Positions 1,269 to 33,878 of a stretch of 56,614 nucleotides of DNA are shown in pieces. The notes beneath the pieces were generated by a model, which was not told the DNA's origin, did not search any database, and saw nothing but the letters and a program-made list of their open reading frames with translations. The DNA is from Candidatus Polarisedimenticolaceae bacterium (GTDB lineage Bacteria > Acidobacteriota > Polarisedimenticolia > Polarisedimenticolales > DASRJG01), in NCBI GenBank assembly GCA_035649595.1, contig DASRJG010000073.1, forward strand, positions 1-56,614, written 5' to 3'. The translations under genes and the position numbers were made by a program. Each line of letters starts with the position of its first letter. Within the stretch, counting starts at the first letter, position 1.

Positions 1269-1955
1269 ATGACCGAAACGCGTCGCGTCTATCGCTACTA
1301 CGAGTTCGTGCTGGCGGCCTTCGTGACGGTGCTGCTCTGCGCGAACATCATCGGCCCGGGAAAGGTGGCGCGCGTCGGGCCGCTGACCTTCGGCGCGGGC
1401 GTGCTCTTCTTCCCGATCTCCTACATCTTCGGCGACGTGCTGACCGAGGTGTACGGGTACGCCCGGGCGCGCCGCGTCGTCTGGTCCGGCTTCGCCGCGC
1501 TCGCCTTCGCGTCGTTCATGGCCTCGGTCGTCGTGGCGTTCCCGCCCGCGCCGGGGTGGAACCATCAAGCCGCCTACGAGACCGTGTTCGGCTCGACCTG
1601 GCGGATCGTGCTCGCGTCGCTGACCGCGTTCTGGGCCGGGGAGCTCTGCAACTCGTACGTGCTCGCGAAGATGAAGGTCTGGACCGAGGGTCGAAGCCTG
1701 TACCTGCGCACGATCGGATCGACGATCGTCGGCGAGGGGGTGGATTCGTTGATCTTCTACCCGCTGGCCTTCCTCGGGGTCTGGACCAACGATCAGGTTC
1801 TTCGGGTGATGATCACGAACTACGCGATCAAGGTCGGCTGGGAGACACTCGCGACGCCCGTCACCTACCGGATCGTCGGCTGGCTCAAGCGCGCCGAGCA
1901 CGAGGACTACTACGATCGCAACACCGACTTCAACCCGTTCACGCTGAGGGTCTGA
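1269..1955 (+). CDS. yhhQ: queuosine-precursor transporter, YhhQ/DUF165 (Vut) family
   Basis: 228-aa multi-pass membrane ORF with family-typical stretches (FFPISYIFGDVLTEVYGY, RTIGSTIVGEGVDSLIFYP). GGGAGG lies just upstream of the ATG. Confidence 0.85.
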   Translation: MTETRRVYRYYEFVLAAFVTVLLCANIIGPGKVARVGPLTFGAGVLFFPISYIFGDVLTEVYGYARARRVVWSGFAALAFASFMASVVVAFPPAPGWNHQAAYETVFGSTWRIVLASLTAFWAGELCNSYVLAKMKVWTEGRSLYLRTIGSTIVGEGVDSLIFYPLAFLGVWTNDQVLRVMITNYAIKVGWETLATPVTYRIVGWLKRAEHEDYYDRNTDFNPFTLRV

Positions 1956-2886
1956 TCCCCGCGTGCCCGGCCAGGGCGGCGACGAGCGCGCCGCGGACGT
2001 TCGTCCCGCCCAGGTGATCGAACCCGAGGAACATCGGGGAAGGGTTCAGCTCCAGGATCTTGAGGACGCCGTTCGACGCCTCCTTGAGGTCCATCCCCGT
2101 GAACCGGAGGCCGGTCGCCAAGGCCGCGCGGAGGCAGATGTCCTCGACGGCGGGGGCGAGCGCGATGCTCTCCACCTTCTCCTCGTTCTGGCGGTAGTCG
2201 AGCGCCTGGCTGTGGATGTGGAACGCGGCGACGACCCGGCCGTCGAGCACGAACACGCGCAGGTCGCGCCCCGGGAGCAGCTCCTGGAAGGTGACCGGCG
2301 CATTGGCGAGCCGGGCGAGCTTCGTCTCGTCGAGATCGGCCGCGGAGAGCTCGCGGGTCGCGGCCCCGCCCGCCACCGGCTTGTAGGCGATGCGGCGGCC
2401 CTCGGCGAAGCGGCGGACCGCTTCGGGGTCGTTCGTCCAGAGGGTCTCCGGGACCGGCAAGCCGCGCTGCGCGAGCTCGGCCATCTGGAACGGCTTGCGC
2501 ACCGCGTCGGAGGCCGACAACGCGTTGTAGATCGGGATTCCCATCGCCTCCCAGCGCCGCATCACCCCGACGAGCACCTCTGCCTTCTCGCGCAGGATGA
2601 CGAGCGTGGTGCGCCAGTCCTCGCTCATCTCGCGCGTCATGTCCACGCCGAACGCGAGGGGAGAGAGGTACAGGCTGCGAAGGTAGACGGCGGACGGGTG
2701 GCCGACGTCCTTCCCGTCCAGCAGGATCGCGTCGGGCTCCGCCCCGAGCGCCAGGCGAGGCGACGCCGGGAACGCCAGGCTGTCGAGGATCACCGGGGCG
2801 GCCCCGACTTCGTCGAGCGACTCGCGCAGCGCCGCGACGTGATCGTCGGATACGGATCCGACGAGAACGATCGGCCCCCGGCTCAC
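1939..2886 (-). CDS. ATP-grasp ligase, MdnC/MvdD-like (putative RiPP macrocyclase)
   Basis: This is the C-terminal 315 aa of track ORF 1939..4467. The GTG start at 2886 overlaps the TGA of the upstream gene (GTGA). The N-terminus IVLVGSVSDDHVAALRESLDEVGAAPVILDSLAFP, and ..RVFVLDGRVVAAFHIHSQALDYRQNEE..GMDLKEASNGVLKILELNPSPMF, resemble microviridin-type ATP-grasp enzymes by eye. Confidence 0.8.
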   Translation of the reverse strand: MSRGPIVLVGSVSDDHVAALRESLDEVGAAPVILDSLAFPASPRLALGAEPDAILLDGKDVGHPSAVYLRSLYLSPLAFGVDMTREMSEDWRTTLVILREKAEVLVGVMRRWEAMGIPIYNALSASDAVRKPFQMAELAQRGLPVPETLWTNDPEAVRRFAEGRRIAYKPVAGGAATRELSAADLDETKLARLANAPVTFQELLPGRDLRVFVLDGRVVAAFHIHSQALDYRQNEEKVESIALAPAVEDICLRAALATGLRFTGMDLKEASNGVLKILELNPSPMFLGFDHLGGTNVRGALVAALAGHAGIRPSA

Positions 2887-4637
2887 CGCAGCACCGCGGC
2901 GACGATCGCGGGGTGCTGCCCGATCATCACGTCCAGATCGTCCAGCGTGGATTCCCAGACCCGCCCGTTGAGCAGCAGGGTCGGCGTTCCGGTCCGGAGC
3001 GCATCGGCGAGCGCGGCGGCTCGCTCCACCGCCTCCGCGGCGGCGGGCAGGACGGCCGCAGGATCCACGGACGGCGGCATGAACGCGGCGACCAGCCGGT
3101 CCGCCCCACCCCGCGCGATCTCCAGGTACTTGCGCGGCTCGCCCTTGATCGTGCGGAAGACGTGGATCGTCTGCTCCCCCCCGGCGAGCAGCCCGATCGC
3201 CGAGACCCCGGCGCACATCGCGAGGTCCCCGGGATCCTTGGGATCGCGCGGCGCGAGATGGAAGGCGACCTGCACGGTGTCGGCGCGGCGCGAGGTCATG
3301 CCGACGAGCCCCTCGACGACGGGACCGCAGCCGCTGCAGAACGGGTGCACGAGCGCGTCGATGCGGAACGGAGCGTCGGACCGGCCGAGGCGGAACGCGG
3401 ACGCCGGTGGGCTCGAGAAGGCGCGGGTGCGCCCGGCCGCCTCCGCGAGCGCGCCCCACGGCGTCGCGGCGACCCAGGCGAGCCTGCTCCGGCTCGCGCG
3501 AGATTCGATGCCCAGCTCGAGGAGCGGCACCACCAGCCCCGCGACCGCCAGGAAGGCGGTGACGTGGATGGCGCCGACGAGCACGAGCATCGGCGGCGTG
3601 AGCGCCTCCCAGGCGCGGGCGCCGGTCACCACGATCATCGCGGCGCCCGCGAGCACCCCGGCGTGGACCGTCATGCAGAGCGGGCAGAACCTCTTGAGCG
3701 GCCAGACCTGCAATCCGATGAAGAACAGGGAGGCCGGCGCGGCGAGCAGGTGCGCCGCCGCGATCCAGCCGAAGCCGAAGACCAGCAGCGGTGGAGGCGC
3801 GATGGCGAGGACCCCGGCGAGGATCACGTTGGACGCGGCGAAGGCGAGACCGAGAACGGGGAGATCGAACCCGCCGATGCGCGCCCACTTCGACCCGAGG
3901 ACGCCTTCGCAGTCGCCGAGCCCTCCGCGGCCGCAGATGCGCTGCGCCAGCCGGGGCGTCGCCGAGGCGACCCTCGTGCGGCGGCTGGCGTGGAACAGGA
4001 CGATGCAGGTGGCGGCGACGAGCAGGTCGAGGCCGATCAGAGCCGCGGCGGCCGCGGCGAGCGGCGGCCGCGCGGAGAGCCGCGCCGCCGCCCCGAGACC
4101 CAAGAGGACGATGCCGAGCGTACCGATCGCCCGGGCGGCAAGGAGCGCCGCCGCTTGGCGGTCGACGCGCGCGAGCGTCCACCAGCGGGCCAGGGGTCCG
4201 GGGTCCCTCGGCGGAGCGACCGGTCGCTCGGGGCTCTCGAACGTGACGATCACGCCGGTCCAGGCGGATGCGAACGAGCCGGCGTCCAGCCGCGTGACCT
4301 CGTGGGTGATCGGGTCCTCGAGCTCGTAGGCGTCGCGCGCGGCCCCGACGAGAACACCGAACGACTCCTCGCCGTCGAGAGGGGACCGCAAATGCACGAT
4401 CGCGGGGAGCACCGCGTCGCCGAGGTTCGCAAGCTCGCCTTGGAAGGCGCGCGCGGTGTATCCCCAATCGCGCGCGACGTGGACGAGCGCGAGCAGCGAC
4501 GAGGGATCGTCGTGCAGCGAGAACCGGGCGGCGACGAGCGTCGGCTCGACGCGGTTCCCGAGCCGCCCGAACACCGACGCGAGCACCTCGGCCGGTCCCG
4601 CGCCCCGATACGTCTCGACTCCCATCGTGTCGGTCAT
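2883..4637 (-). CDS. three-domain membrane protein: Cys-less peptidase-C39-like domain, vitamin K epoxide reductase (VKOR) domain and thioredoxin/DsbA-like domain
   Basis: 584-aa ORF. The N-terminal ~140 aa align by eye to the C39 domain of the neighbouring ABC exporter, but GADC is replaced by GAGP and the domain contains no Cys. The VKOR loop pair is C-x7-C (ICGRGGLGDCEG), with SKWA and the CxxC in FCPLCM. The C-terminal thioredoxin-like CxxC is FCSGCGP. Confidence 0.85.
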   Translation of the reverse strand: MTDTMGVETYRGAGPAEVLASVFGRLGNRVEPTLVAARFSLHDDPSSLLALVHVARDWGYTARAFQGELANLGDAVLPAIVHLRSPLDGEESFGVLVGAARDAYELEDPITHEVTRLDAGSFASAWTGVIVTFESPERPVAPPRDPGPLARWWTLARVDRQAAALLAARAIGTLGIVLLGLGAAARLSARPPLAAAAAALIGLDLLVAATCIVLFHASRRTRVASATPRLAQRICGRGGLGDCEGVLGSKWARIGGFDLPVLGLAFAASNVILAGVLAIAPPPLLVFGFGWIAAAHLLAAPASLFFIGLQVWPLKRFCPLCMTVHAGVLAGAAMIVVTGARAWEALTPPMLVLVGAIHVTAFLAVAGLVVPLLELGIESRASRSRLAWVAATPWGALAEAAGRTRAFSSPPASAFRLGRSDAPFRIDALVHPFCSGCGPVVEGLVGMTSRRADTVQVAFHLAPRDPKDPGDLAMCAGVSAIGLLAGGEQTIHVFRTIKGEPRKYLEIARGGADRLVAAFMPPSVDPAAVLPAAAEAVERAAALADALRTGTPTLLLNGRVWESTLDDLDVMIGQHPAIVAAVLR

Positions 4638-4641
4638 CCTG

Positions 4642-4685
4642 GAGAAAAAAGAAACGGCCGGCCCCTGGTCAGAGAAGGCCGGCCG
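4642..4685 (-). terminator. intrinsic terminator after the fourth precursor gene, ending 5 nt before the oxidase start codon
   Basis: Minus strand reads GGCCGGCC-13 nt loop-GGCCGGCC followed by GTTTCTTTTTTC. Confidence 0.65.
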
Positions 4686-4703
4686 TCAGGTGTGCTCCGG
4701 AGA

Positions 4704-4847
4704 TCAGTTGCAGCCGGAACAGCCGTTGGCTTCCTCGCCGCAGGCGAGGGTCGTCGGAAGACAGCACGGACAGGGGAACGGAGGCGGTGGCGGCTTCTTG
4801 CCTCCCCCGTTGACGTGCTTCAGATCCTCGATGAACAACTCACGCAT
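4704..4847 (-). CDS. RiPP precursor peptide A4 (47 aa): MRELFIEDLKHVNGG|GKKPPPPPFPCPCCLPTTLACGEEANGCSGCN
   Basis: Hand-verified translation. GGGAGA RBS upstream of the ATG at 4847. The track ORF 4704..4940 over-extends the N-terminus. Double-glycine leader; core with 6 Cys and TT-x4-EE. Confidence 0.85.
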   Translation of the reverse strand: MRELFIEDLKHVNGGGKKPPPPPFPCPCCLPTTLACGEEANGCSGCN

Positions 4848-4870
4848 CGTCAGTCTCCCAGCCGACGACA

Positions 4871-5005
4871 TCAGCTCGTCGCGCAGCAGCTGTCGCAGGG
4901 GCCTTCCTCGCAGCAAGCGAGGGTGGTGATACCGCAGCACTTACACGGGTGCGGAGGCTTGCCACCCTGCACGTTCTTCAGATCCTCGATGAATAGCTCA
5001 CGCAT
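4871..5005 (-). CDS. RiPP precursor peptide A3 (44 aa): MRELFIEDLKNVQGG|KPPHPCKCCGITTLACCEEGPCDSCCATS
   Basis: Not in the ORF track (too short). Hand translation: ATG 5005, TGA 4871-4873, GGGAGAA RBS upstream. The leader is near-identical to the paralogs. Core has 8 Cys and TT-x4-EE. Confidence 0.85.
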   Translation of the reverse strand: MRELFIEDLKNVQGGKPPHPCKCCGITTLACCEEGPCDSCCATS

Positions 5006-5029
5006 GGTCGGTTCTCCCAGCCGAAGAGA

Positions 5030-5173
5030 TCAGCTCGTGGGCGGGCAGCAGGTGTCGCAGCCGATGGATGATTCCTCGCAGCAGGCCATGGTCGTAGGAT
5101 TGCAGCACCTGCACGGCCTGGGGCCCCATCCGCCTTGGATCTTCTTGAGATCCTCGATGAACAGCTCCTTCAT
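5030..5173 (-). CDS. RiPP precursor peptide A2 (47 aa): MKELFIEDLKKIQGG|WGPRPCRCCNPTTMACCEESSIGCDTCCPPTS
   Basis: Not in the ORF track. Hand translation: ATG 5173, TGA 5030-5032, GGAGG RBS (5182-5186 on the plus strand). Core has 8 Cys and TT-x4-EE. Confidence 0.85.
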   Translation of the reverse strand: MKELFIEDLKKIQGGWGPRPCRCCNPTTMACCEESSIGCDTCCPPTS

Positions 5174-5191
5174 ACCCGAACCCTCCTAGAA

Positions 5192-5223
5192 ATGAAAAAA
5201 GCGCGGTATGAGGTTCCGCGCTT
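5192..5223 (-). terminator. intrinsic terminator immediately after the first precursor gene (A1)
   Basis: Minus strand reads AAGCGCGG-9 nt loop-CCGCGCTT followed by TTTTTTC. The stem starts at the A1 stop codon. Confidence 0.7.
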
Positions 5224-5363
5224 CAGATGCAGCAGTTGCCGGAGCAACCGTTGGCTTCCTCGCAACACGCGAGGGTGGTGGGGCGACAACACTTGCAGCC
5301 GATCACCTCGTTCTGCTTTCCGCCTTGAACCTTCTTGAGATCCTCGATGAACAGCTCTTTCAT
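5223..5363 (-). CDS. RiPP precursor peptide A1 (46 aa): MKELFIEDLKKVQGG|KQNEVIGCKCCRPTTLACCEEANGCSGNCCI
   Basis: This is the C-terminal part of track ORF 5223..5591. The real ATG is at 5363, preceded by GGAGAGGAG. Core has 8 Cys and TT-x4-EE. Confidence 0.85.
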   Translation of the reverse strand: MKELFIEDLKKVQGGKQNEVIGCKCCRPTTLACCEEANGCSGNCCI

Positions 5364-5403
5364 ACGCAATGCTCCTCTCCGCCGGGAGAAAACCGGCGTT
5401 CGG

Positions 5404-5432
5404 ACTCTACGCACGTGTCGCCCCCCGGTCAA
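5404..5432 (-). promoter_or_regulatory. sigma-70-type promoter for the precursor genes (TTGACC-17 nt-TAGAGT)
   Basis: The -35 (5427-5432) overlaps the ABC exporter stop codon; the -10 is at 5404-5409. The same TTGAC-17-TAGAnT architecture occurs upstream of rpmH and rpsU in this window. Confidence 0.6.
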
Positions 5433-7576
5433 GTCCTTTCCTGGGCCCGAACCAGCTCGGCATAAAGACCCTTTCGGGACAGGAGCGCGGCGTGGTCTCC
5501 CGTTTCCGCGATGGCGCCCCTCTCGAGGACGACGATCCGATCGGCGTCGATGACCGTGCTCAGGCGGTGGGCGATTACGATTCGGGTGCAACGAAGTTGT
5601 GCCAAGTTGTTCGCAATCGTTCGTTCCGTGACGTTGTCGAGGTCGCTGGTCGCCTCGTCCAGGAGGAGAATCGCCGGCCTTCGAAGGAGCGCCCGGGCGA
5701 GGGCGAGCCTCTGCCGCTGGCCCCCCGAGAGGGTCGCCCCCCCGTCGGCCAGAAGGGTGTCGTACCCCATCGGCAGGGCCTCGATGTCGTCATGGATCGC
5801 CGCGATCCGCGCGGCGGCGATGACGGCGTCCAGGTCCGTGTCCGGGTCGGCGAGCGCGATGTTCGCTCGGACCGTGGCTCCGAAGATCCGGGCATCCTGC
5901 GTGACCACACCGATCTGCGCTCGGACGGAGCGGAGCTCCAGCCCTTGGAGGTCGAGATCGTCGTACAGGATCCGCCCGGACTCGGGCGCGTAGAGTCCGA
6001 CGAGCAGACGGGCGAGCGTCGACTTGCCGGCGCCGGACCTCCCGACGATCGCCAGCTTCTCCCCCGGCACGACGTGGAGGGTGACGCCGTCGACCGCGGG
6101 GGGGTCGTTGCGGGAGTACCGGTAGGTGACCTGCTCGAGCGCGATCGCCCCCGAGAGCTTCGGCGCCGGCCGGACGGCGCGGGCGTCCTGCTCGCGAGCC
6201 GCCTGGAGCACGTCCTCGATGCGCGCCACGTGGCTTCGCGTCTCCTGGAGCTGGAGCGCGGTCGCGAGGAGGCTCGAGAGCGGCATCAGGAACCCCGCGG
6301 CGAGGGCATTGAGGGTCAGCATCGTCCCGAGCGAGATCTGGTCCCGGAGCACGAGCACGGTGCCGCCGAGGAGGATCGCGAGCGGGGAGCCGATCGACAG
6401 CGCGGCCGTCAGCGCCCCGGCCAGTGAGCCCACCTGCCCGCGCCGGAGGGCGACGTTCATCTCGTCGATGAACAGGTGCGACCACCGCTCGGTGGAGCGG
6501 CGCTCCGCGCCGAGCGCCTTCAGCGACTCGAAGCCCGCGAGCATGTCGACGATGTGCGACTGCGTCCGCGACGAGGCCTCCAGCTCCTGCGCGGCCAGGT
6601 CGCGCATCGGTCCGCGAAACGCCGCGAAGACGGCGATCTGCGCGAGGCCGAGGACGATCACGAGCGCGCCGAGCCGCCAGCTCGCGGCGACGAGGAGCAC
6701 CAGATACGAGATGACCAGCGCCCCGTCGAGCAGCGTCGAGAGCGAGACGGACGTCAGCGCGGTCCGGAGCGCCCGGTTGCTCTCGTAGCGCGAGAGCAGA
6801 TCCCCCGCCGGGCGGCTCGTGAAGAAGGTGTAGGGAAGGTCCGCCAGCCTCTCCATGAAGCCGAACGTCAGATCGACGTCGAGAACCGTGCGGAGGTGGA
6901 TCAGGAGCACGCCGCGCAGGAGCGTGGCGACGAGCTGGAACACGACCAGCCCCGCCGCGCCGACGGCGAGCAATCCGACGAGCCCCGCGTCCCGCCAGGG
7001 GATCACCCGGTCGACCACCGCTCCCAGGATCAGGGGGAACGCCAGCGCCAGCGCCTGCAGGATGATCGAGAGGGCGATGACCCGGGCGACGATGCCGCGG
7101 TGCCGGAGCACGCGCCCGAGATACGCCGCGACGTACCGGCGACGGATCCGGCGCGCCTGGAACCCTTCTCCGGGCTCGAGGATCAGCGCGACCCCCGTGA
7201 ACCGCTCCCGGAAGCTCTGCATCGGCACCATCCGCGGCCCGGCGGCGGGATCGACCACGCGCACGCCCGATCCGGCCAGCCGGTCGAAGACCACGAAGTG
7301 CTCGAACCCCCAGTGGAGGATCGCGCCACGCGGGAGGAACTTCAGGTCGCCGACGTCGAGCTGAACCCCTCGGCCGCGGACCCCGAAGCGCTGGGCGCCC
7401 ACGACGATGTCGTACGCGCTCGCCCCCCCGCGTCCCGCGCCCACCGCCTCCCGCGCCTCGTCGAGCGTGATGTCGCGCCCGAGGTACCCCAAGACCATCG
7501 TCAGGCAGGCGGCCGCGCAGTCGGCGCCCTCCATCTGCGGGACGAACGGGATCGCGCGCCGCGGCCTAGTCGCCAC
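5429..7576 (-). CDS. bacteriocin/RiPP ABC exporter with N-terminal peptidase C39 domain (double-glycine leader cleavage and export)
   Basis: 715-aa ORF with a GTG start. The C39 catalytic region is QMEGADCAAACL with later HWGFEHF and VVDP. Six-TM ABC membrane domain. Walker A GRSGAGKST, signature LSGGQRQR, Walker B ILLLDEATS. Confidence 0.93.
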   Translation of the reverse strand: MATRPRRAIPFVPQMEGADCAAACLTMVLGYLGRDITLDEAREAVGAGRGGASAYDIVVGAQRFGVRGRGVQLDVGDLKFLPRGAILHWGFEHFVVFDRLAGSGVRVVDPAAGPRMVPMQSFRERFTGVALILEPGEGFQARRIRRRYVAAYLGRVLRHRGIVARVIALSIILQALALAFPLILGAVVDRVIPWRDAGLVGLLAVGAAGLVVFQLVATLLRGVLLIHLRTVLDVDLTFGFMERLADLPYTFFTSRPAGDLLSRYESNRALRTALTSVSLSTLLDGALVISYLVLLVAASWRLGALVIVLGLAQIAVFAAFRGPMRDLAAQELEASSRTQSHIVDMLAGFESLKALGAERRSTERWSHLFIDEMNVALRRGQVGSLAGALTAALSIGSPLAILLGGTVLVLRDQISLGTMLTLNALAAGFLMPLSSLLATALQLQETRSHVARIEDVLQAAREQDARAVRPAPKLSGAIALEQVTYRYSRNDPPAVDGVTLHVVPGEKLAIVGRSGAGKSTLARLLVGLYAPESGRILYDDLDLQGLELRSVRAQIGVVTQDARIFGATVRANIALADPDTDLDAVIAAARIAAIHDDIEALPMGYDTLLADGGATLSGGQRQRLALARALLRRPAILLLDEATSDLDNVTERTIANNLAQLRCTRIVIAHRLSTVIDADRIVVLERGAIAETGDHAALLSRKGLYAELVRAQERT

Positions 7577-8111
7577 GCGCGCTCCGGAGCGAGGGGAACA
7601 GGAGGCCGAGCAGGCTCTCCTTCCCGACCGGCGCCCGAGCCGTGAGCACCTCCCCGGCCGTCGCCCCTGCGCCGCGATCCCCGAGAAGGATCGCGTCGGC
7701 GATCAGGACGCGGGATGGAGCGGCGCCCCCCGGCCAGGTCGCGCCGCGAATCCGATCGATCACGAGAGTGAGCGGGGCGGGCTCGAGCCGCACCGCCCTC
7801 ACCTCCGCACGGAGCGTCCGCCGCGCATCCGAGGGATCGCCGAGCTGGACGACGAGCCCCGACGCGATGCCGCGACGGTCGCGATCGGAGAAATAGAGCG
7901 TGACCGATTCGGGCGTTTCGACCGCGGCGAGCCCTTGCGCGTACACCGCCACGGACCCGAGCGCCGCGTACGCCGCGCCGGCGACGAAGACGGCCACGAG
8001 GAACGCGAACGTCCATCGCGTCCAGGACGGCGGGACACGCAGGACGTCGCCGGAGGATCGTGCTCCGGCGTGGTGGCGGAGCGCCTCTTCGCGAAAGAGT
8101 CCTTCGGTCAT
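7566..8111 (-). CDS. short HlyD-like secretion accessory protein (181 aa; lacks the long coiled-coil region)
   Basis: The real start MTEGLFREEALRHH (ATG 8111) is typical of HlyD-family N-termini and is followed by one TM helix. It overlaps the upstream stop (ATGA) and overlaps the ABC gene start by 11 nt. The upstream part of track ORF 7566..8795 was rejected. Confidence 0.55.
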   Translation of the reverse strand: MTEGLFREEALRHHAGARSSGDVLRVPPSWTRWTFAFLVAVFVAGAAYAALGSVAVYAQGLAAVETPESVTLYFSDRDRRGIASGLVVQLGDPSDARRTLRAEVRAVRLEPAPLTLVIDRIRGATWPGGAAPSRVLIADAILLGDRGAGATAGEVLTARAPVGKESLLGLLFPSLRSARGD

Positions 8112-8869
8112 CGACGGATCAGCCTCCAGCCGTCGGCGTAGAGATAGTCGAGATCGTCCCGGCGCTCCAGCCGTCCCGACACCTCGACGGGGCGACCGAC
8201 CAGATCCGCGATCCGAGACCCCAGCGGGCTTCCATCGGCCGCGACCAGGATGAGATGCGCCTCGCGCCCCCGCTCGTCTCGCGCGAACAGCATCGGCGGG
8301 ATCCCGCCCGCGAGGCATCGCAGCGCGCAGGCGCGGTGCACGGCGAGACGTCCCGGGTTCATCACGCCGAGAAAGCACTTCGAGTCGACGATCTCCCCCG
8401 TGAGCACCCGGCGCCCTTCGTCCACGATGCGCGTCGCGGGAGGGGGCGGTCCGCCGGTCGGGAGCGCGGGCTCGTAGGGCTCGATGTCGGCCAGCTCGAT
8501 CATCGTGGTCGAGCCCCGGACGATGCGCCGTCCCCGCACCGTCACCGGCCTCCCGTCGAATGCGGCCACGACGCCTCCCGCGCCGTGCTTCCCCTCGGCG
8601 ACGAGCGGATAACGGACGACCGCGGCGAACGGCGAGCCGTCGCTCGACTCCCTGGCGAGGAGCACCGGGACCGGCTCGGTCTCGATGGTCCCGCGCCAGG
8701 CCCGAGTCTCTCCGTACTCGAAGACCGCACGGTCGAAGGGGCCGGTCGCCGCCGCGAAGAGGGCGGCTCCGGCGACCGATGCCCCGAGCAGCCACCAGGC
8801 GATGCGTCGCGTCCGCGCCGCGCAGCTCGCGGGAGCGGGAAGGTAGCCGACGAAGAAGTCGTCAGACAC
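8108..8869 (-). CDS. hypothetical membrane-anchored protein with a C-x12-H-x2-C-x3-C motif
   Basis: 253-aa ORF with an N-terminal TM helix (IAWWLLGASVAGAALFAAA) and the motif DSKCFLGVMNPGRLAVHRACALRC. It is translationally coupled on both sides. No family recognised. Confidence 0.6.
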   Translation of the reverse strand: MSDDFFVGYLPAPASCAARTRRIAWWLLGASVAGAALFAAATGPFDRAVFEYGETRAWRGTIETEPVPVLLARESSDGSPFAAVVRYPLVAEGKHGAGGVVAAFDGRPVTVRGRRIVRGSTTMIELADIEPYEPALPTGGPPPPATRIVDEGRRVLTGEIVDSKCFLGVMNPGRLAVHRACALRCLAGGIPPMLFARDERGREAHLILVAADGSPLGSRIADLVGRPVEVSGRLERRDDLDYLYADGWRLIRR

Positions 8870-9863
8870 GGGCCGGCTCGACGGCGGTTCCCGGCTCGTG
8901 CGCCTCGGGGTTCACCCAGACCCGGCCCGCGACGACGCGCACGTCGAAGGTCGCGATCTTCTCCGTGAAGGGCGCGGGGGAGCGGCCGGTCTGCGGGAGG
9001 TACTGGTAGCCGTGCCAGGGGCACGTGATACAGCCGTCGATGATCCGCCCCTCGCCCAGGGGGCCTGCCTGATGCCGGCAGACGTTCGAGACCGCGGAGA
9101 TCCAGCCGTCGTAGCGAAAGACGGCGATGCGCTCCTTGTCGCAGACGATGCGGGCGCGATCCTCGGGGATCTCGGCCGCCGGCCCCGCGTCGATCCAGCC
9201 GTCCGGCCCCCGAGGCGTCGCCCGGTCCCCAGGGCGCTCGCGCGACGCGGCGAGGAGGTGGATCGACAGGAGCCAGATCATCCCCACTCCCGTCGCGATC
9301 GCGAGCGCGGGGTGGATCTCGGAGCGGAGCGCGCCGAACGCGACGTGGAGCGAAAGGAGCGCATACGCGAGATACACCGCCATGTGGAGGGACTTCCAGA
9401 CGCGAGCGCTCAGGTTGGCCAGCCAGAAGTCGTGGCTCGTCGCCGCCATTAGGAAGAGGATCACGAGCGCGCCGAGACCGAAGGTCTGGAACCCGAATCC
9501 CGTGGTCAGGAGGCTGACCAGCGGCGGCACGTTCCCCAGCGCGTGGAACTGGACGATCGCGAAGATCGCGTGCGCCAGCGCCAGGCAGAACATCGCGACG
9601 CCGAGGTGCCGCCGGTTGTAGAGGAGCGGGAGCAGCGCCGGCCGCAGCCGGCACAACGGCCCGATGGAGAGGATGACGTGGAGGAGGAGGAACGCCGCGA
9701 GAGCGAGGCCGCGGATCAGGAGGGTCTCGATCGTCGAGTCCGGATGGACCGCGGCGCCGATCGCGACGAACGCCCCGAGGAACAGCGCGACGCCCGCCGC
9801 GAGCACCGTGTCGTAGCGTCGCTTGAAGCGGTTCCAGCCGACGGCGGCGTAGGAGACGCTCAT
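8862..9863 (-). CDS. ferric-reductase-like (di-heme b, MsrQ/YedZ-type) transmembrane domain fused to a Rieske [2Fe-2S] domain
   Basis: 333-aa ORF. The N-terminal ~200 aa form a multi-TM region with conserved His residues. The C-terminus carries the Rieske motifs CRHQAGPL ... CPWHGYQY. Confidence 0.8.
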   Translation of the reverse strand: MSVSYAAVGWNRFKRRYDTVLAAGVALFLGAFVAIGAAVHPDSTIETLLIRGLALAAFLLLHVILSIGPLCRLRPALLPLLYNRRHLGVAMFCLALAHAIFAIVQFHALGNVPPLVSLLTTGFGFQTFGLGALVILFLMAATSHDFWLANLSARVWKSLHMAVYLAYALLSLHVAFGALRSEIHPALAIATGVGMIWLLSIHLLAASRERPGDRATPRGPDGWIDAGPAAEIPEDRARIVCDKERIAVFRYDGWISAVSNVCRHQAGPLGEGRIIDGCITCPWHGYQYLPQTGRSPAPFTEKIATFDVRVVAGRVWVNPEAHEPGTAVEPARV

Positions 9864-9979
9864 CGCAGGACGACGCCGGCGACGAACGCGATCGGAAGGA
9901 GGATCGCGAGCCCGATCAGGATCAGCCTGTGGGCGCGGCGGAGCGCCCGGGTCAACGCCCTCTCCCGACCGCCGCCCAT
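9860..9979 (-). CDS. possible 39-aa single-TM peptide (MGGGRERALTRALRRAHRLILIGLAILLPIAFVAGVVLR)
   Basis: Its stop overlaps the start of the ferric-reductase/Rieske gene (ATGA), which has no RBS of its own. There is no clear RBS for this ORF, and its start overlaps the 72-aa ORF end by 28 nt. Confidence 0.3.
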   Translation of the reverse strand: MGGGRERALTRALRRAHRLILIGLAILLPIAFVAGVVLR

Positions 9980-10170
9980 CGGCGCGCGATGAACGGCCAG
10001 AGCGCGATCACGCCCGGGAGGACCAGCACGCGGAACGTCCACGGCGTGCCGCGCGCCGCGGCGTCGATGCGTCCGATCCCCGTGATCACGAACGGCACGC
10101 CGATCAGCGTTCCGACGCCGAGGTAGACCCCGAGTGTCCACAGGGCGACACGGGCGGCGTCCGCATGCAT
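9952..10170 (-). CDS. small two-TM membrane protein (72 aa), function unknown
   Basis: ORF with two clear hydrophobic helices. It starts 10 nt after the stop of the upstream gene. No obvious RBS. Confidence 0.45.
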   Translation of the reverse strand: MHADAARVALWTLGVYLGVGTLIGVPFVITGIGRIDAAARGTPWTFRVLVLPGVIALWPFIARRWAAVGRGR

Positions 10171-10180
10171 GGGGCGAAGG

Positions 10181-11941
10181 TTACGGGAAGTACCAGTACA
10201 GCACCAGACTCACCGACCAGCCGCCGCGCTGGACGAGCACGTCGTAGTCGATGGTGTAGGTTCCGCCGGCCGGGAGCTGGGCGGTCAGGTCGAGGTCCTG
10301 ATCGCAGGGTGCATTTCCCGTGCACGCCACGTAGCCGGGACACCAGCCCGCGCGGGAGAACGTGCAGGACGGCCAGCCGCACGCGTTCCAGCCCATGCAC
10401 GCCGTGATGCCCCCCGGGGTGCAGTCGGTCCGGAACGGGACGCCCGTCCAGATCGGCGTGCCGTTCTTCAGGATCCGGTTCGTCCTGTGGCAGAACTCGT
10501 CGCAGTTCTGGCAGGTCCCCCCCGGGCAGTTCGAGGTGGTGGTGCAGGCGTTCCCGTTGTTCGACCCGCCGTCGCAGTAGAGCGTCCCGCCATGGCCGGT
10601 GGTGAAGAGCCGCATCACGACCTTGTTGGCCCCGAGCGGGATCGAGACCGACCGCGTCGCGAGGGGCGCGCCGCCGAACCCGACGACCTGGATCCCCGCG
10701 GCGGGGTGCTTCGCGGACGCTTCCTCGGGGCGCTTGCTGAAGGTGAACTCGCTCGTGACGTGCCAGCCCGCCGAAGCGAAGTTCGCGATCTCGGCCCCGA
10801 CGTACTTGTGCCCGGTGAGCAGCGGGGCGTACGGCGTGACGTCGAGCGAGAGCACGCGGGGGGGGACGACGCCGGTGCCGTTGGGCGCCGGGGCGTCCGT
10901 GCCGAACGGGGTGATCGCGCGCATGAGCTCGAGGTTGTCGTTGGTGACGCAGCTCCCCGTTCCCGCGATACAGCCGTCGAGCACGAGGAAGAGCTGCGCG
11001 ATCCGGTCCCACGGATCGCCGCACGGGTTCCACCCGCCGGGCGTGGGGTTCGTGCTCCCGCACTTGTCCGTGCACCCCATCTGCCCCGGCTTGCACAGCC
11101 TCGAGTCCAGCGTGTAGGTCACCGTGATCTTGGTCCAGTTCCCGGCCGGGAAATCGACGGGGACCATCAGCTGGAACCCGTCGCTGCGCTGAACGGTGCC
11201 GGGCCGCGGCGGACAGCTCTGGCCGCCGCCGAGCCAGCAGAGGGCGTCGTCGTCGTGGGCGCGCACCCGGACACGGCCGGCGACCGCCTCGATGTGCTCG
11301 TTCGAGAACGCGGACTCGTTCCCGGCCGCATCGACGGCCACGACCGCGAAGTAGTAGTTCGTCCACAGCGCGAGGCCGGTCATCGACGTGGCGAGCGACA
11401 GCCCGACGTCCTTCACGTTGTCGTAGACGTGCGATTTCGTGCCGTAGTAGACGAGGTACTTCGTCACCTCTCCCGCCGGCGCCGCCGCGGTCCAGGTGAG
11501 CTCGATCGTCGTGTCGGTGTAGCTGCCGGAGATCACCGGGAGCGTCGTGACGGTGGAGCCCCTCGATTCGGATTCGTTGCCGGCGGCGTCGACCGCAGTC
11601 ACGAGGTAGTAGGCATCGATGCCGGAGCCGAGGGCTCCGGCGTCCAGGAAGCTCGGGGTGGGCGACGTTCCGATGCGATTGCTCCCGCCCGCCTTGTCGG
11701 GGACGAAGCTCGGCACCGATCCCCGATAGACCCGATAGGAGGCGACGCTCTCCACTCCGTCGTTGACGTCGCGATCGACGAGCGACCAGGACAGCGCCGC
11801 GTCGCCCCCCGACTTGCCGACCAGGACGTTGGCCGGGGCCTTCGGCTTGGTGACGTCCGCGCCGAGCGTGGCCGGAGCCAACGCCAGAAGGGCGGGAAGC
11901 ACGAGGATCGCGGGACGCAAGGGCCGGCTCATGATCGCCAT
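10181..11941 (-). CDS. secreted protein: signal peptide, two fibronectin-III-like domains and a Cys-rich PNGase-F-like C-terminal domain
   Basis: Start chosen at MAIMSRPLRPAILVLPALLALAPATLGA (ATG 11941). FN3-like signatures are YRVYRG.., YYLVTAVDAAGNES and YYFAVVAVDAAGNES. The C-terminal ..HGGTLYCDGG..CDEFCHRTN..NG..RAGWCPGYV.. resembles the peptide-N-glycosidase F C-terminal family by eye. Confidence 0.7.
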   Translation of the reverse strand: MAIMSRPLRPAILVLPALLALAPATLGADVTKPKAPANVLVGKSGGDAALSWSLVDRDVNDGVESVASYRVYRGSVPSFVPDKAGGSNRIGTSPTPSFLDAGALGSGIDAYYLVTAVDAAGNESESRGSTVTTLPVISGSYTDTTIELTWTAAAPAGEVTKYLVYYGTKSHVYDNVKDVGLSLATSMTGLALWTNYYFAVVAVDAAGNESAFSNEHIEAVAGRVRVRAHDDDALCWLGGGQSCPPRPGTVQRSDGFQLMVPVDFPAGNWTKITVTYTLDSRLCKPGQMGCTDKCGSTNPTPGGWNPCGDPWDRIAQLFLVLDGCIAGTGSCVTNDNLELMRAITPFGTDAPAPNGTGVVPPRVLSLDVTPYAPLLTGHKYVGAEIANFASAGWHVTSEFTFSKRPEEASAKHPAAGIQVVGFGGAPLATRSVSIPLGANKVVMRLFTTGHGGTLYCDGGSNNGNACTTTSNCPGGTCQNCDEFCHRTNRILKNGTPIWTGVPFRTDCTPGGITACMGWNACGWPSCTFSRAGWCPGYVACTGNAPCDQDLDLTAQLPAGGTYTIDYDVLVQRGGWSVSLVLYWYFP

Positions 11942-11987
11942 TACGTACACCCGGTGCGCGCGACGATCAACGGGAAAAGCCGCGGCG

Positions 11988-13313
11988 TCACTTGAACAGG
12001 TGGTCGTAGCGCCCGGGCTTCCCCTGCTCCCATGGGCGATAGACATTGCAGAAGTCGATCCGCTCGCCGAGCAGCGGGTGGTCGGCCCGCCAGAGCTTGT
12101 ACAGGAGCCCCCGTCGCGGGACGCCGAGGTTCTCCTGCTGGAGCTTCACGAACGCGGTGGCGGCCGCGTGGTTGTCCCGCGTGATCTCCAGGCCGAAACG
12201 GTCGGCCTCGTGCTCCTGCCACCGCGAATACGCCCCGGCGACCGGTGTGACGACGAACGACAGCACGCCGACCAGGATGATGATGAGCGGAAGGGAGGCG
12301 ACGTCCGAGAGCTCCGTGAATCCGAACCGCGACCCGAACCGCGCGATGAGCCCTCCTTGCAGGCGATAGGCGGCATAGAGCGTGACCAGGATCAACCCGG
12401 CGAAGAAGAAGATCGATTTCACCACGTGACCGAGCACGTAGTGGCCCATCTCGTGCCCCATGACGAAGAGCAGCTCCTCCGGCGCGAGCTTGGCGATCGT
12501 CGTGTCCCAGAGGACGATCCGCTTGGTGCCGCCGAATCCGGTGACGTAGGCGTTGACCGTGTTCGTGTCCACGCTCTTCTCGACCTCGAACACGCGCGCG
12601 CCGTCGATTCCGGCGCGCCCCGCGAGGGTCAGGATCTGCTGCTCCAGCGCCTTGTTCTTCATCGGACCGAACTTGTTGAACAGCGGCGCGATCGCCACCG
12701 GGGCGACGAGCAGGAAGAACGCCGCGAGCGGGATCGCGAGCGCGCTGGTCCACAGCCACCAGCGGCGCGGGCTCTTCCGGAGGAGCAGATAGGGGATCCA
12801 CAGGAAGAGCGCGCCGATCACGATCCCCACCATGAGTCCCTTGAGCTCGTCGCCGGCCCACTTGCCGAAGGTCTGATTCGAGAGGCCGTACGCGTGAGGC
12901 CGGACGAACCCGGCGAAATAGGACAGCGGCAGATCGGCCAGGAAGTCGATGAGGGCGAACAGCGCGACGTACACGACGATCGTGAAGAGCCACACGCGTC
13001 CGATCTTCCGGGCGCGATCGCGGAGCTTCGCGGAGAGACCCGTGAAGAGGATGAGCGCCGGCACGAGCAGGCTCCAGACCTGATCGGTCGCCCAGAGCCA
13101 GTTTCCCCCGCGGGCGAAGCGAAGCGCCTTTTCGGTGGGCTCGGGAACGGGGACGGGCCCCCGCTCCGGCTCGGGCGCCGGAGAGGAATCCGCCGCCTGG
13201 TTGGCGATGCCGTGCGGGGACTCCTCGGGAGGAGGATTCGGGGGCGCGGCGAGCCCCGGCACCCCGAGCGCGAGAGCGAGGACCGCGAGGAGCACGGCAA
13301 CACGCGCGCTCAC
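11988..13313 (-). CDS. M48-family zinc metalloprotease (Ste24/HtpX-like), membrane-bound
   Basis: The GTG start at 13313 overlaps the stop of the BON gene (GTGA). HEMGH motif (VMGHEMGHYVLGH) and multiple TM helices. The upstream part of track ORF 11988..13631 was rejected. Confidence 0.85.
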   Translation of the reverse strand: MSARVAVLLAVLALALGVPGLAAPPNPPPEESPHGIANQAADSSPAPEPERGPVPVPEPTEKALRFARGGNWLWATDQVWSLLVPALILFTGLSAKLRDRARKIGRVWLFTIVVYVALFALIDFLADLPLSYFAGFVRPHAYGLSNQTFGKWAGDELKGLMVGIVIGALFLWIPYLLLRKSPRRWWLWTSALAIPLAAFFLLVAPVAIAPLFNKFGPMKNKALEQQILTLAGRAGIDGARVFEVEKSVDTNTVNAYVTGFGGTKRIVLWDTTIAKLAPEELLFVMGHEMGHYVLGHVVKSIFFFAGLILVTLYAAYRLQGGLIARFGSRFGFTELSDVASLPLIIILVGVLSFVVTPVAGAYSRWQEHEADRFGLEITRDNHAAATAFVKLQQENLGVPRRGLLYKLWRADHPLLGERIDFCNVYRPWEQGKPGRYDHLFK

Positions 13314-14044: not shown

Positions 14045-14057
14045 GCCACGATCCTAC

Positions 14058-14100
14058 GAAAAAAGGGCCGGCGCAGTTGCCCCACCGGCCCCTTTATTTT
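14058..14100 (-). terminator. intrinsic terminator downstream of the protease gene (hairpin flanked by A- and T-tracts, so potentially bidirectional)
   Basis: Plus strand reads GAAAAAA-GGGCCGG-13 nt-CCGGCCC-CTTTATTTT. Confidence 0.65.
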
Positions 14101-14119
14101 CCGAATCGCTCGTTCGCGG

Positions 14120-17722: not shown

Positions 17723-19450
<1,728 letters not shown>

Positions 19451-19463
19451 CGTCCTCTCTTGT

Positions 19464-30144: not shown

Positions 30145-33878
<3,734 letters not shown>

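Follow-up and report, generated by a model that had tools for sequence, protein, structure and literature searches.

Organization of the gene cluster

The window analyzed here is a stretch of 56,614 nucleotides from Candidatus Polarisedimenticolaceae bacterium, a soil member of the Acidobacteriota (contig DASRJG010000073.1). It carries a string of genes, all on the minus strand, that encode in transcription order a 181-aa single-pass membrane protein (p181, 7566–8111), a 715-aa C39-peptidase ABC exporter (PCAT, 5429–7576), four short precursor peptides (5363–4704), a 584-aa C39-like/VKOR/DsbA fusion protein (2883–4637) and a 315-aa ATP-grasp enzyme (1939–2886). The ORF list contains all five proteins and the four peptide genes at the positions assigned in a preliminary description of this DNA. 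The GTGA overlap reported there is also present in the sequence at 2883–2886, where the GTG start of the ATP-grasp gene overlaps the TGA stop of the fusion gene.

Several putative regulatory features accompany the genes, all on the minus strand. A sigma-70-like promoter match (TTGACC-17-TAGAGT, 5404–5432) immediately precedes the first peptide gene; one match was found versus 0.2 expected, and it is a consensus match only. Every peptide gene is preceded at 7–10 nt by a GGAG-type ribosome-binding site. After the first of them, a hairpin followed by a U6 tract (5195–5224; −13.9 kcal/mol, z −3.1) resembles an attenuator or terminator, and a strong GC hairpin with a U-rich tract behind it (4644–4687; −30.6 kcal/mol, z −4.6) separates the oxidase gene from the last precursor gene. 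None of 200 shuffled sequences was as stable in either case. The second hairpin probably acts as a leaky terminator, through which the ratio of precursor to enzyme is set.

The same gene order is also seen in metagenomes and MAGs. Wherever the sequence extends to the ATP-grasp position, in 26 loci (25 fetched loci and the window), the fusion gene lies directly upstream of and next to the ATP-grasp gene, which is missing from none of them. The pair is found in Acidobacteriota, Actinomycetota and Myxococcota. Synteny, on which the preliminary description had made its reading depend, also holds elsewhere, as peptide genes in the fetched loci adjoin the ATP-grasp and VKOR-fusion genes. This recurring order, together with four paralogous peptides that share a common leader, places the cluster beyond chance.

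Precursor peptides and exporter

All four precursors consist of a 15-residue leader, M(K/R)ELFIEDLKxVxGG, and a core of 29–32 residues. A1 (46 aa, 5223–5363, minus strand) has the leader MKELFIEDLKKVQGG and the core KQNEVIGCKCCRPTTLACCEEANGCSGNCCI; A2 (47 aa, 5030–5173, minus strand) has MKELFIEDLKKIQGG and WGPRPCRCCNPTTMACCEESSIGCDTCCPPTS; A3 (44 aa, 4871–5005, minus strand) has MRELFIEDLKNVQGG and KPPHPCKCCGITTLACCEEGPCDSCCATS; and A4 (47 aa, 4704–4847, minus strand) has MRELFIEDLKHVNGG and GKKPPPPPFPCPCCLPTTLACGEEANGCSGCN. The first three contain eight Cys residues each and A4 contains six. Close relatives of A1, with one or a few substitutions, occur at two other loci (L013 and L015). Substrates of PCATs carry hydrophobic residues at positions −4, −7 and −12 before the GG (PMC12457901), and all four peptides follow this rule with V/I at −4, L at −7 and L at −12, then GG.

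Each core in the window carries a single TT(L/M)AC(C/G)EE. The pattern TTxxxxEE had been named in the preliminary description as the plesiocin signature, correctly so, and as [ST]T-x-A-C-x-E-E it is kept in all 45 distinct cores from ~27 loci. These cores contain 4, 6 or 8 Cys only, arranged in six frameworks, with gains and losses of Cys occurring in pairs. As the number is always even, it fits two to four disulfides. A Stigmatella relative that lacks the fusion gene has the Cys-free core TTYALAEE. Steric constraints may weigh against the joint presence of esters and disulfides, since the four-residue loop of the ester hairpin holds two neighboring Cys.

The exporter is a PCAT of the NHLM/NHLP type, and profile searches confirmed the C39, ABC_membrane and ABC_tran domains expected of the C39-peptidase ABC exporter described before (Peptidase_C39 1.9e-27, ABC_membrane 8.5e-33, ABC_tran 1.3e-33). 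It matches TIGR03796 at 3e-171, under the cutoff of that model, and possesses the catalytic Cys (ADC) and His (EHFVV). C39 ABC exporters are among the protein families most frequent beside graspetide ATP-grasp genes (Makarova 2022), and group 2 graspetides co-occur with NHLM-type transporters.

The p181 protein starts with MTEGLFREEAL; its N-terminal motif, LFREEALRHH, is accompanied by a single TM helix and by a beta-rich domain that spans ~110 aa. Homologs lie upstream of the PCAT gene in six other loci (L003, L004, L020, L023, L024 and L026), and in some loci p181 is truncated or fused to the PCAT. No Pfam match (E up to 10) or NCBIfam match (E up to 1) was obtained. The best PDB profile match is a beta-barrel segment of MacA (E 0.19), and hhalign against an AprE-type barrel protein gave E 0.33, both non-significant. 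At only 181 aa the protein has no room for a coiled-coil hairpin. It is possibly the stub of an HlyD/MFP-type export accessory protein; the ORF described earlier as HlyD-like is present, and that name was the weakest item of the description.

The fusion protein and its predicted membrane topology

The 584-aa protein begins with a non-catalytic C39-like domain (CLD, residues 1–~140, 4218–4637, minus strand; Pfam Peptidase_C39 1.2e-10). A VKOR domain with six hydrophobic helices follows (residues ~160–386, 3480–4160, minus strand; Pfam VKOR 2e-11, 44.6 bits vs a cutoff of 27.5). The C-terminal part is a DsbA-like thioredoxin-fold domain (residues ~393–584 and the stop, 2883–3461, minus strand), recognized from Foldseek matches and invariant columns. 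These assignments bear out the earlier view of a Cys-less C39-like domain, a VKOR domain and a thioredoxin-like domain in one protein.

The AlphaFold model of the CLD resembles ComA PEP (5xe8, TM 0.76), LahT150 (6mpz) and the HlyB CLD (3zua) in Foldseek comparisons. In the five CLDs aligned, the catalytic Cys is replaced by Pro or another residue and the catalytic His by Ser, Gly, Ala or Arg, and alignments of relatives revealed no conserved Cys in the domain. The CLD is predicted to be a GG-leader binding module.

The VKOR part has one helix more at its N terminus (TM0) than bacterial VKOR with its five, and it contains the loop Cys C235 and C243 and a C318-P-L-C321 motif. The DsbA-like domain contains C434-S-G-C437, the cis-Pro T551-P552 and a lone invariant C475. 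Its Foldseek matches are BdbD (3eu3), ScsC, DsbA and BcfH; by sequence it matches Thioredoxin_4 weakly (E 0.064), a domain that is called directly in P0215, a distant relative. All 19 aligned relatives retain the six redox Cys (C235, C243, C318, C321, C434 and C437) as well as the cis-Pro. We infer that the protein acts as a VKOR/DsbA-like disulfide generator with a relay to quinone.

The protein belongs to a large, uncharacterized family: 60 clusters at 50% identity match it at E ≤ 1e-30, and many of the further matches are full-length C39-like/VKOR/Trx fusions. Distant fusions of this kind adjoin GG-leader peptides with 2, 2, 6 and 8 Cys, with no ATP-grasp there.

The topology was predicted from a hydropathy scan combined with the positive-inside rule. 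The window protein shows six hydropathy peaks, and its AF2 model has six long helices. Six hydrophobic segments are also found in 97 of 140 relatives by the scan, a crude method that returns five or seven helices for 39 of the 140 (five for 29). Six helices place the N- and C-terminal domains on one side of the membrane. K+R residues number 11–16 on the side that bears the CLD, the Cys loop, the CxxC and the DsbA-like domain and 1–6 on the opposite side. In human VKORC1, too, the luminal segment following TM1 includes a basic stretch, and for that reason this loop was excluded from one of the bias comparisons. The same reversed bias is seen in 92–94 of the 97 relatives and is opposite to that of the solved Synechococcus VKOR-Trx (3KP9/4NV2 sequence). 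The loops that are cytoplasmic in canonical VKORs are nearly free of K and R in this family, and P0215 carries KYKKKDRELRRLK immediately after its last helix. The sequence prediction thus departs, in six helices and reversed bias, from the canonical N-in, five-helix topology with a periplasmic active site. Since the basic residues lie on the side with all three functional modules of a six-helix protein, we lean somewhat toward oxidation at the cytoplasmic face, with the precursor not yet exported and still carrying its leader. Oxidation was assumed to be periplasmic in the preliminary description, whereas the number of helices and the charge bias point to the other face.

The same graspetide pathway could also operate with an oxidase in the canonical orientation. 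In that case the CLD would dock to the PCAT or the precursor in the cytoplasm, the DsbA-like domain and the active site of VKOR would face the periplasm, and the disulfides would form after cleavage and export. To our knowledge, all solved VKORs and known DsbB/VKOR oxidases face the periplasm or the ER lumen; the periplasm is the natural oxidizing compartment and the cytoplasm is reducing. The solved Synechococcus VKOR-Trx, with its five-helix core and Trx domain, and the relatives scanned with five helices point the same way. We nevertheless regard this orientation as rather unlikely, in view of the six segments of the window protein and most of its relatives, the basic residues gathered beside the Cys loop, the CxxC and the DsbA-like domain, and the scarcity of K and R in the normally cytoplasmic loops. 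In addition, a leader-binding domain in the periplasm would have no ligand after the PCAT has removed the leader.

Beyond the window, the chances appear even that the fusion family represents a large, undescribed group of naturally inverted VKORs, that is, leader-guided, quinone-coupled disulfide synthases that act on the cytoplasmic face before cleavage and export by the PCAT. If so, the family has been recruited here to a plesiocin-type graspetide, with a scaffold of nested omega-esters and two to four disulfides, and it would be a natural counterpart, furnished with a substrate-recruiting domain, of the engineered inverted VKOR.

A further alternative concerns the Cys residues themselves, which might bind metal or form other cross-links, with the fusion protein serving immunity, export quality control or another redox task. 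Makarova et al. take conserved Cys of graspetide precursors as possible thioether donors. However, no radical-SAM enzyme, dehydratase or cyclase occurs in the conserved cassette of the loci compared, the Cys count is strictly even over the six frameworks, every aligned fusion keeps the full VKOR-plus-CxxC relay, and the fusion family tracks Cys-containing GG peptides outside graspetide clusters too. All the above make such a role very improbable.

The ATP-grasp enzyme and the class of the product

The ATP-grasp protein is assigned as a PsnB-type macrocyclase of graspetide synthetase group 2a. The PsnB structure (PDB 7DRM) was matched over the full length at E 3.7e-87 (query residues 6–306 vs chain residues 28–329), whereas RimK and LysX reached only ~1e-10. 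Identity to PsnB is 47.7%, and all 13 functional residues compared are conserved, counting R192K and I193L. The core-binding and catalytic residues R72, R213 and the D(F/W)R loop of PsnB correspond to R70, R210 and D230-Y-R232, and R101, which is specific to group 2a, corresponds to R99. The leader pocket of PsnB (Y171, R181, R192, I193, L196, V201 and F203) is retained with the R-to-K and I-to-L changes. By these comparisons the enzyme is related to PsnB, the macrocyclase of plesiocin, at the level of an orthologue and is not RimK-like. Its earlier designation as a RiPP macrocyclase is supported by these E values. The label MdnC-like captured a graspetide-type ATP-grasp and was too loose, the protein being specifically PsnB-like (group 2). 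A point against the overall reading is that the protein falls under the curated NCBIfam cutoffs of the MvdC, MvdD and SAV_5884 maturase models. That it is instead a RimK/LysX-type amino-acid ligase, adding for example Glu tails, is scarcely credible: RimK is the best match in Pfam and rimK_fam in NCBIfam (3.3e-21, all NCBIfam matches under cutoff), and JGI labels relatives as 'glutathione synthase/RimK-type ligase', but the RimK-type matches are confined to the C-terminal ATP-grasp core (residues ~105–305), the PsnB alignment takes in the leader pocket and the core-Glu-binding residues, and the cognate peptides bear the leader and core motifs of PsnA2.

As the enzyme, the LFIEDL leader and the core are all plesiocin-type, the cluster belongs to the characterized group 2 (plesiocin-type) graspetides and is not a new RiPP class. 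The claim of an unprecedented combination survives in part. Graspetides with a GG leader and a C39 exporter are known, and so are oxidoreductases together with a PCAT, in glycocins; new here is only the pairing of a Cys-rich graspetide core with a C39-like/VKOR/DsbA fusion oxidase. In the literature and searchable supplements we found no graspetides linked to VKOR, thioredoxin or these cores.

Proposed biosynthetic pathway

We are fairly confident that this operon directs the synthesis of single-core group 2 graspetides, which are knotted further by enzyme-installed disulfides and exported by the PCAT. The four precursors, as can be read from their genes, would first be translated. Given the close homology to PsnB, the ATP-grasp enzyme would bind the LFIEDL motif of the leader and phosphorylate both Glu side chains. 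The inner ring (second Thr with first Glu) would close before the outer one (first Thr with second Glu), which would give two nested Thr-Glu omega-esters. The dead C39-like domain of the fusion protein would hold the same GG leader while the DsbA-like CxxC oxidizes the six to eight core Cys to three or four disulfides. Electrons would pass to the loop Cys of VKOR, then to its CxxC and finally to the membrane quinone. From what is known of its family, the PCAT would cut after the GG and export the cross-linked core, and p181 may serve as an accessory. The product may inhibit serine proteases, an activity we propose with low confidence by analogy with the two characterized group 2 graspetides.

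Comparison with known systems

The closest system is plesiocin of Plesiocystis pacifica (PsnA2/PsnB, group 2a, PDB 7DRM–7DRP). It shares the LFIEDL leader motif, which is required in PsnA2, and the TTxxxxEE core, which predicts two nested Thr-Glu esters here. Whereas the plesiocin precursor contains four repeated cores, each window precursor contains one. A PsnA2/PsnB paper reports no Cys or disulfide, whereas cores of the present cluster contain 4–8 Cys, two of them in the ester loop; the window also differs in a membrane oxidase gene translationally coupled to the ATP-grasp gene. In the rcp cluster of Rheinheimera (RcpA/RcpB/RcpC), too, a group 2 graspetide occurs together with a PCAT, whose C39 domain cleaves off the leader, and the products are inhibitors of human neutrophil elastase. 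Several ester motifs occur in RcpA (TTxxxxEE, TTxxxED and VTxxxxED), and neither an oxidase in the cluster nor graspetide disulfides are described (PMC11626197).

Domain searches and neighboring loci revealed no glycosyltransferase for the precursor in the conserved cassette, which sets the cluster apart from the glycocin type. BdbB of sublancin is DsbB-like. Glycocins (sublancin, sunA-sunT-bdbA-sunS-bdbB; glycocin F, GccCD) resemble the present system in having a precursor, a PCAT and cluster-encoded thiol-disulfide oxidoreductases, which form two or three disulfides (PMC12457901). Their oxidoreductases, however, are separate thioredoxin-like and DsbB-like proteins with no VKOR and without a leader-binding domain, their primary modification is glycosylation and not ATP-grasp esterification, and their producers are Firmicutes.

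HlyB-type CLDs bind their substrate instead of cutting it. They likewise have a C39 fold without catalytic residues (PDB 3ZUA), fused there to an ABC transporter and here to a redox enzyme. With the Synechococcus VKOR-thioredoxin (PDB 3KP9/4NV2) the fusion protein shares the VKOR fold, the loop Cys pair, the CxxC, one further helix following the four-helix core, a C-terminal thioredoxin-fold domain with a CxxC and an implied electron relay to quinone. It differs in its added N-terminal C39-like domain and one additional TM helix, in the reversed K/R bias and in a thioredoxin-fold domain that is DsbA-like with a helical insert. Unlike the bacterial VKOR/DsbA pathway, it is proposed to be dedicated to one peptide family and not to be a general oxidase. 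An engineered inverted VKOR/DsbB makes disulfides in the E. coli cytoplasm (Hatahet and Ruddock 2013, as cited in PMC4727284); that enzyme is artificial, whereas the family of the fusion protein would be natural.

Organization and chromosomal setting of the cassette

The minus-strand cassette comprises genes for a 181-aa protein, p181 (7566-8111), a 715-aa ABC protein, the peptidase-containing exporter PCAT (5429-7576), four Cys-rich double-glycine (GG) leader peptides A1-A4 (5223-5363, 5030-5173, 4871-5005 and 4704-4847), a 584-aa fusion protein (2883-4637) and a 315-aa ATP-grasp protein (1939-2886). An ORF check confirmed the positions that the preliminary description had given for five protein genes and four peptide genes, and the overlap it claimed between the GTG start of the 315-aa gene and the TGA stop of the fusion gene can be read in the sequence. 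Each peptide gene is preceded by a GGAG-type ribosome-binding site, and a promoter-like site lies just upstream of A1. A hairpin with a U-tract is found 3' of A1 (-13.9 kcal/mol) and a stronger one 3' of A4 (-30.6 kcal/mol, z -4.6). A hairpin and U-tract between precursor and enzyme genes is the usual route to an excess of precursor over enzyme.

The window has a G+C content of about 69% and contains, in this order of coordinates, the core chromosomal genes rpoD-dnaG (17723-21233), gyrB (30145-32571), mnmG/gidA (40397-42202) and mfd (52248-55676). The cluster therefore sits in the chromosomal core, possibly near the replication origin. Neither tRNA genes nor Rfam matches were found in the window. 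We considered an origin from a mobile element or phage, of which no sign was seen in these chromosomal-core surroundings. The genome closest to the window is an Acidobacteriota metagenome-assembled genome, and a 7.5-kb JGI contig shows 100% amino-acid identity to the window across the cassette.

A predicted PsnB-type macrocyclase

The only Pfam match of the ATP-grasp protein was 'RimK', and all of its NCBIfam matches fell under their cutoffs, so these results alone left open whether it is a RimK-type enzyme or a macrocyclase. In a PDB search, PsnB (7DRM), the macrocyclase of the group 2 graspetide plesiocin from Plesiocystis pacifica, matched residues 6-306 at an E value of 3.7e-87, whereas RimK and LysX matched at only ~1e-10 and were restricted to the C-terminal core. 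A grouping with RimK-type enzymes, raised in the preliminary description as the alternative, is very unlikely on these values. The identity to PsnB is 47.7%. The residues that had been tested in the structural paper on PsnB were located in the alignment of the two proteins, and all of them are kept: R72, R213, the D-F-R loop (D-Y-R here) and the group-2a-specific R101, together with the leader-pocket residues Y171, R181, R192 (K here), I193 (L here), L196, V201 and F203. Judged by its sequence, the ATP-grasp protein is a PsnB-type graspetide macrocyclase.

Precursor peptides and their cysteine frameworks

According to the PsnB paper, the plesiocin precursor PsnA2 requires the leader motif LFIEDL, its cores have the form TTxxxxEE (the signature given, correctly, in the preliminary description), and in every PsnA2 core the inner Thr-Glu ester is formed first and the outer one second. 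The window peptides carry the leader M(K/R)ELFIEDLKxVxGG, followed by a core with TT(L/M)AC(C/G)EE. Since both motifs match those of PsnA2, the window system belongs to a characterized family. The same 15-residue leader also obeys the PCAT rule, with hydrophobic residues at -4, -7 and -12 before GG, so that the two recognition signals overlap in position.

Related loci yielded 45 distinct cores, in which [ST]T-x-A-C-x-E-E is kept without exception (45/45). The number of Cys is even in every core, being four in 7, six in 22 and eight in 16, and the cores fall into six frameworks. Cysteines are gained and lost in pairs; TTLACGEE cores, for example, lack one C-terminal Cys. Across all graspetide loci the frameworks are modular, with a minimal set of ACC and a C-terminal CC, one optional pair made up of an N-terminal Cys and a C-terminal Cys, and a second optional pair in the form of an N-terminal CC; the second Cys of ACC is lost together with one C-terminal Cys. 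From this modularity, disulfide connectivity can be predicted in a testable way; the covariation of the cysteines points to bonding of the ACC pair with the C-terminal CC. An ATP-grasp protein of the same family is present in Stigmatella aurantiaca with no fusion gene, and the core there, TTYALAEE, is free of Cys, as one would expect were it the role of the fusion protein to pair core cysteines.

Conservation of the gene arrangement

Searches with the ATP-grasp protein and with the fusion protein gathered about 35 loci from other genomes and metagenomes (L-numbers below), with hosts that include Acidobacteriota, Actinomycetota and Myxococcaceae metagenome-assembled genomes (MAGs). In 25 of the ~35 loci and in the window, the ATP-grasp gene directly follows the fusion gene, and no locus of this set that reaches the ATP-grasp position is without an ATP-grasp gene. 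In nearly all of these 25 loci and in the window, precursor genes stand upstream of the fusion gene, with PCAT nearby. Synteny of peptide, ATP-grasp and VKOR-fusion genes elsewhere, the absence of which the preliminary description had listed as evidence against its proposal, is thus present. Given this comparative evidence from sequences, we regard the finding as real and well supported.

In an Actinomycetota MAG (GCA_046263255.1), a glutaminyl-cyclase-family gene (PF05096; L038:5939-6739) overlaps the ATP-grasp stop and represents a possible extra tailoring step; the precursor at this locus reads MRELFIDELAEVTGG followed by STDPLERVKEIVRDLKDGWNTTQACCEEGQCCDYWA. A Myxococcaceae MAG (L037:2900-3235, 6128-9818) has fusion and ATP-grasp genes, with PCAT and a P450 on the opposite strand. 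No clean precursor was found at this locus; the sole candidate is the tail of an ORF immediately 5' of the fusion gene, which ends in HTLAFCEEGPNCGTGC and a stop codon and has no in-frame LFIxDL leader. A frameshift or a leader that has diverged may explain this. At L030:2300-8650 only fragmentary matches to p181, PCAT, the fusion protein and the ATP-grasp protein and no precursor were found, and this copy of the cassette looks decayed.

p181 and flanking genes

Homologues of p181 recur upstream of the PCAT gene in other loci. The protein shows the motif LFREEALRHH in its N-terminal part, a single TM helix and a beta-rich domain. No significant family match was found for it; the best was a MacA barrel (E 0.19), and the HlyD-like label given to it earlier therefore did not reach significance. 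The LFRExA N-terminal motif is fused in frame to PCAT at L008:3752-6007, and p181 is shortened to 81-102 aa at L018:2937-3182 and L022:1169-1477. This accessory thus seems dispensable or decaying, and probably represents what is left of a membrane-fusion protein, a stub that the system can do without.

Two further minus-strand genes are translationally coupled to the p181 gene: one (8108-8869) for a membrane protein of 253 aa that weakly matches DUF5818, and one (8862-9863) for a 333-aa protein that combines a ferric-reductase-like transmembrane domain with a Rieske domain. Their start/stop overlaps suggested operon membership, but among the related loci only the near-identical L012 has them, and they are probably outside the system. 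The Vut_1 gene downstream of the cassette is not conserved with it. A 621-aa secreted-looking protein with fn3 and PNGase F N- and C-terminal domains is encoded beside an M48 (CAAX-type) membrane peptidase at 10181-12046 and 11988-13631, both on the minus strand. Such a domain make-up is unusual for a bacterium.

Domains and conserved residues of the fusion protein

Pfam matches Peptidase_C39 and VKOR in the fusion protein. BLASTP of the PCAT C39 domain against the fusion N-terminal domain gave no meaningful alignment, and the C39-likeness of this domain was settled by a MAFFT family alignment and a fold search. In the AlphaFold model (mean pLDDT 81), the N-terminal domain resembles C39 peptidase domains and the HlyB C39-like domain (TM ~0.75), and the C-terminal domain resembles DsbA, BdbD and ScsC. 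In five of five relatives aligned with true PCAT peptidase domains, the N-terminal domain has lost the catalytic Cys as well as the catalytic His. A phmmer search of the VKOR region against the PDB found human VKOR only, at E 3, so the VKOR assignment rests on Pfam and the Cys pattern.

Invariant residues in a 19-member alignment include C235 and C243 (VKOR loop), the membrane C318xxC321, C434xxC437, the T551-P552 cis-proline and a lone C475. This C475 (window 3213-3215) is unpaired. Residues 383-399 (window ~3441-3491) form an invariant juxtamembrane motif, R-x-R-L-x-W-x-x-x-T-P-W-G-A-L-A-E, which links the last helix to the DsbA-like domain. Sequence and model together indicate that the fusion protein is a three-module redox enzyme.

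Predicted orientation and the wider fusion family

Hydropathy analysis gives six hydrophobic segments in the fusion protein and the model six long helices, whereas Synechococcus VKOR-Trx (sequence confirmed against 4NV2/3KP9) has one helix fewer. There is no signal peptide on the C39-like domain. C39 domains are cytoplasmic; with a cytoplasmic C39-like domain and an even helix count, the DsbA-like domain would lie on the same face. Membrane-adjacent K+R number 11-16 on the side of the C39-like domain, Cys loop, CxxC and DsbA-like domain versus 1-6 on the opposite side in all close relatives (19/19), and in canonical VKOR this bias is reversed.

Repeating the word-indexed search with the family profile added nothing to the 23 proteins of the first, and the wider family is visible only by exhaustive search of representatives. 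This found 60 clusters (50% identity) with E values up to 1e-30 and 1081 with E values up to 1e-10, many of them full-length 525-610-aa fusions sharing the Cys motifs. A crude hydropathy scan finds six helices in 97 of 140 full-length members; the C39-like/Cys-loop/DsbA side is more basic in 94 of these 97, and in 92 with the long TM1-TM2 loop excluded.

Distant family members adjoin GG-leader peptides with 6 and 8 Cys, with PCAT alongside. A low-G+C cluster, possibly of Bacteroidota (L032:3909-4166, 8001-9605, 9768-9989, 10169-14824; also L033), contains a distant C39-like/VKOR/Thioredoxin_4 fusion together with a second thioredoxin/AhpC-like protein, PCAT, an AprE-barrel HlyD protein, a TonB-dependent receptor and two GG-leader peptides (6 and 8 Cys). 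Other members have short GG-leader peptides immediately upstream (L036:6742-6864, with the core ACRRGCGSGRYAR, and L035:362-577, with a core of 37 residues), each core with two Cys, and no PCAT was found within 7 kb. One distant member is an orphan with no GG-leader peptide nearby. No ATP-grasp gene was found at the distant loci with GG-leader peptides, including L032, L033, L035 and L036. The fusion module thus has the look of an oxidase that serves double-glycine peptides in general.

The predicted leader-binding domain of the module makes sense only where leaders persist, that is, in the cytoplasm. An engineered inverted VKOR is known to work in the cytoplasm (Hatahet and Ruddock 2013, cited in PMC4727284). 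From topology predictions and the model we lean towards the view that the fusion oxidase is an inverted VKOR, guided by leaders and acting on the cytoplasmic face.

Significance and comparison with known systems

If the proposed chemistry is true, these would be the first graspetides to join ester macrocycles to a conserved disulfide framework, giving a scaffold of 25-33 residues with up to six cross-links that would be useful to peptide engineers and protease-inhibitor groups; the 45 cores in six Cys frameworks are natural diversity ready for use. If the proposed orientation is true, the oxidase may outweigh the peptide in importance. A cytoplasm-facing VKOR that chooses its substrates by a leader-binding domain would represent a novel way in which bacteria form disulfides as well as a leader-dependent RiPP tailoring enzyme of a new type, and possibly a tool for making disulfide-rich peptides in the cytoplasm. 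The oxidase family, with its predicted inverted topology, is the most novel lead of this analysis, and current graspetide mining rules overlook VKOR/thioredoxin neighbours.

The C39 ABC exporter is among the families most common beside graspetide ATP-grasp genes, and the conserved Cys of graspetide precursors have been taken as thioether donors (Makarova 2022). Group 2 graspetides co-occur with NHLM-type transporters (Carter 2026), and a group 2 graspetide of Rheinheimera with a leader-cleaving PCAT has been produced and inhibits elastase (PMC11626197). The combination of graspetide core, GG leader and C39 exporter, one part of the set that the preliminary description took to be undescribed, had thus already been described (Makarova 2022; PMC11626197). 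Glycocin clusters have PCAT and their own thiol-disulfide oxidoreductases (PMC12457901).

VKOR, thioredoxin, ACCEE and LACGEE are absent from the searchable texts and supplements of two large graspetide surveys, and none of the papers listed in a literature search pairs VKOR with RiPP, C39 or PCAT. The undescribed RiPP class proposed earlier is, as a class, known, namely the group 2 graspetides with their PsnB/PsnA2 motifs; the pairing of a Cys-rich graspetide core with its VKOR oxidase is the part that stands, as no report of a graspetide together with VKOR was found in the published literature outside the tables of Ramesh et al. 2021 and outside Lee et al. 2020 (JACS). On its sequence features, the system would best be filed as a variant form of group 2 graspetides in which a disulfide framework, itself conserved, and an oxidase of their own have been added.
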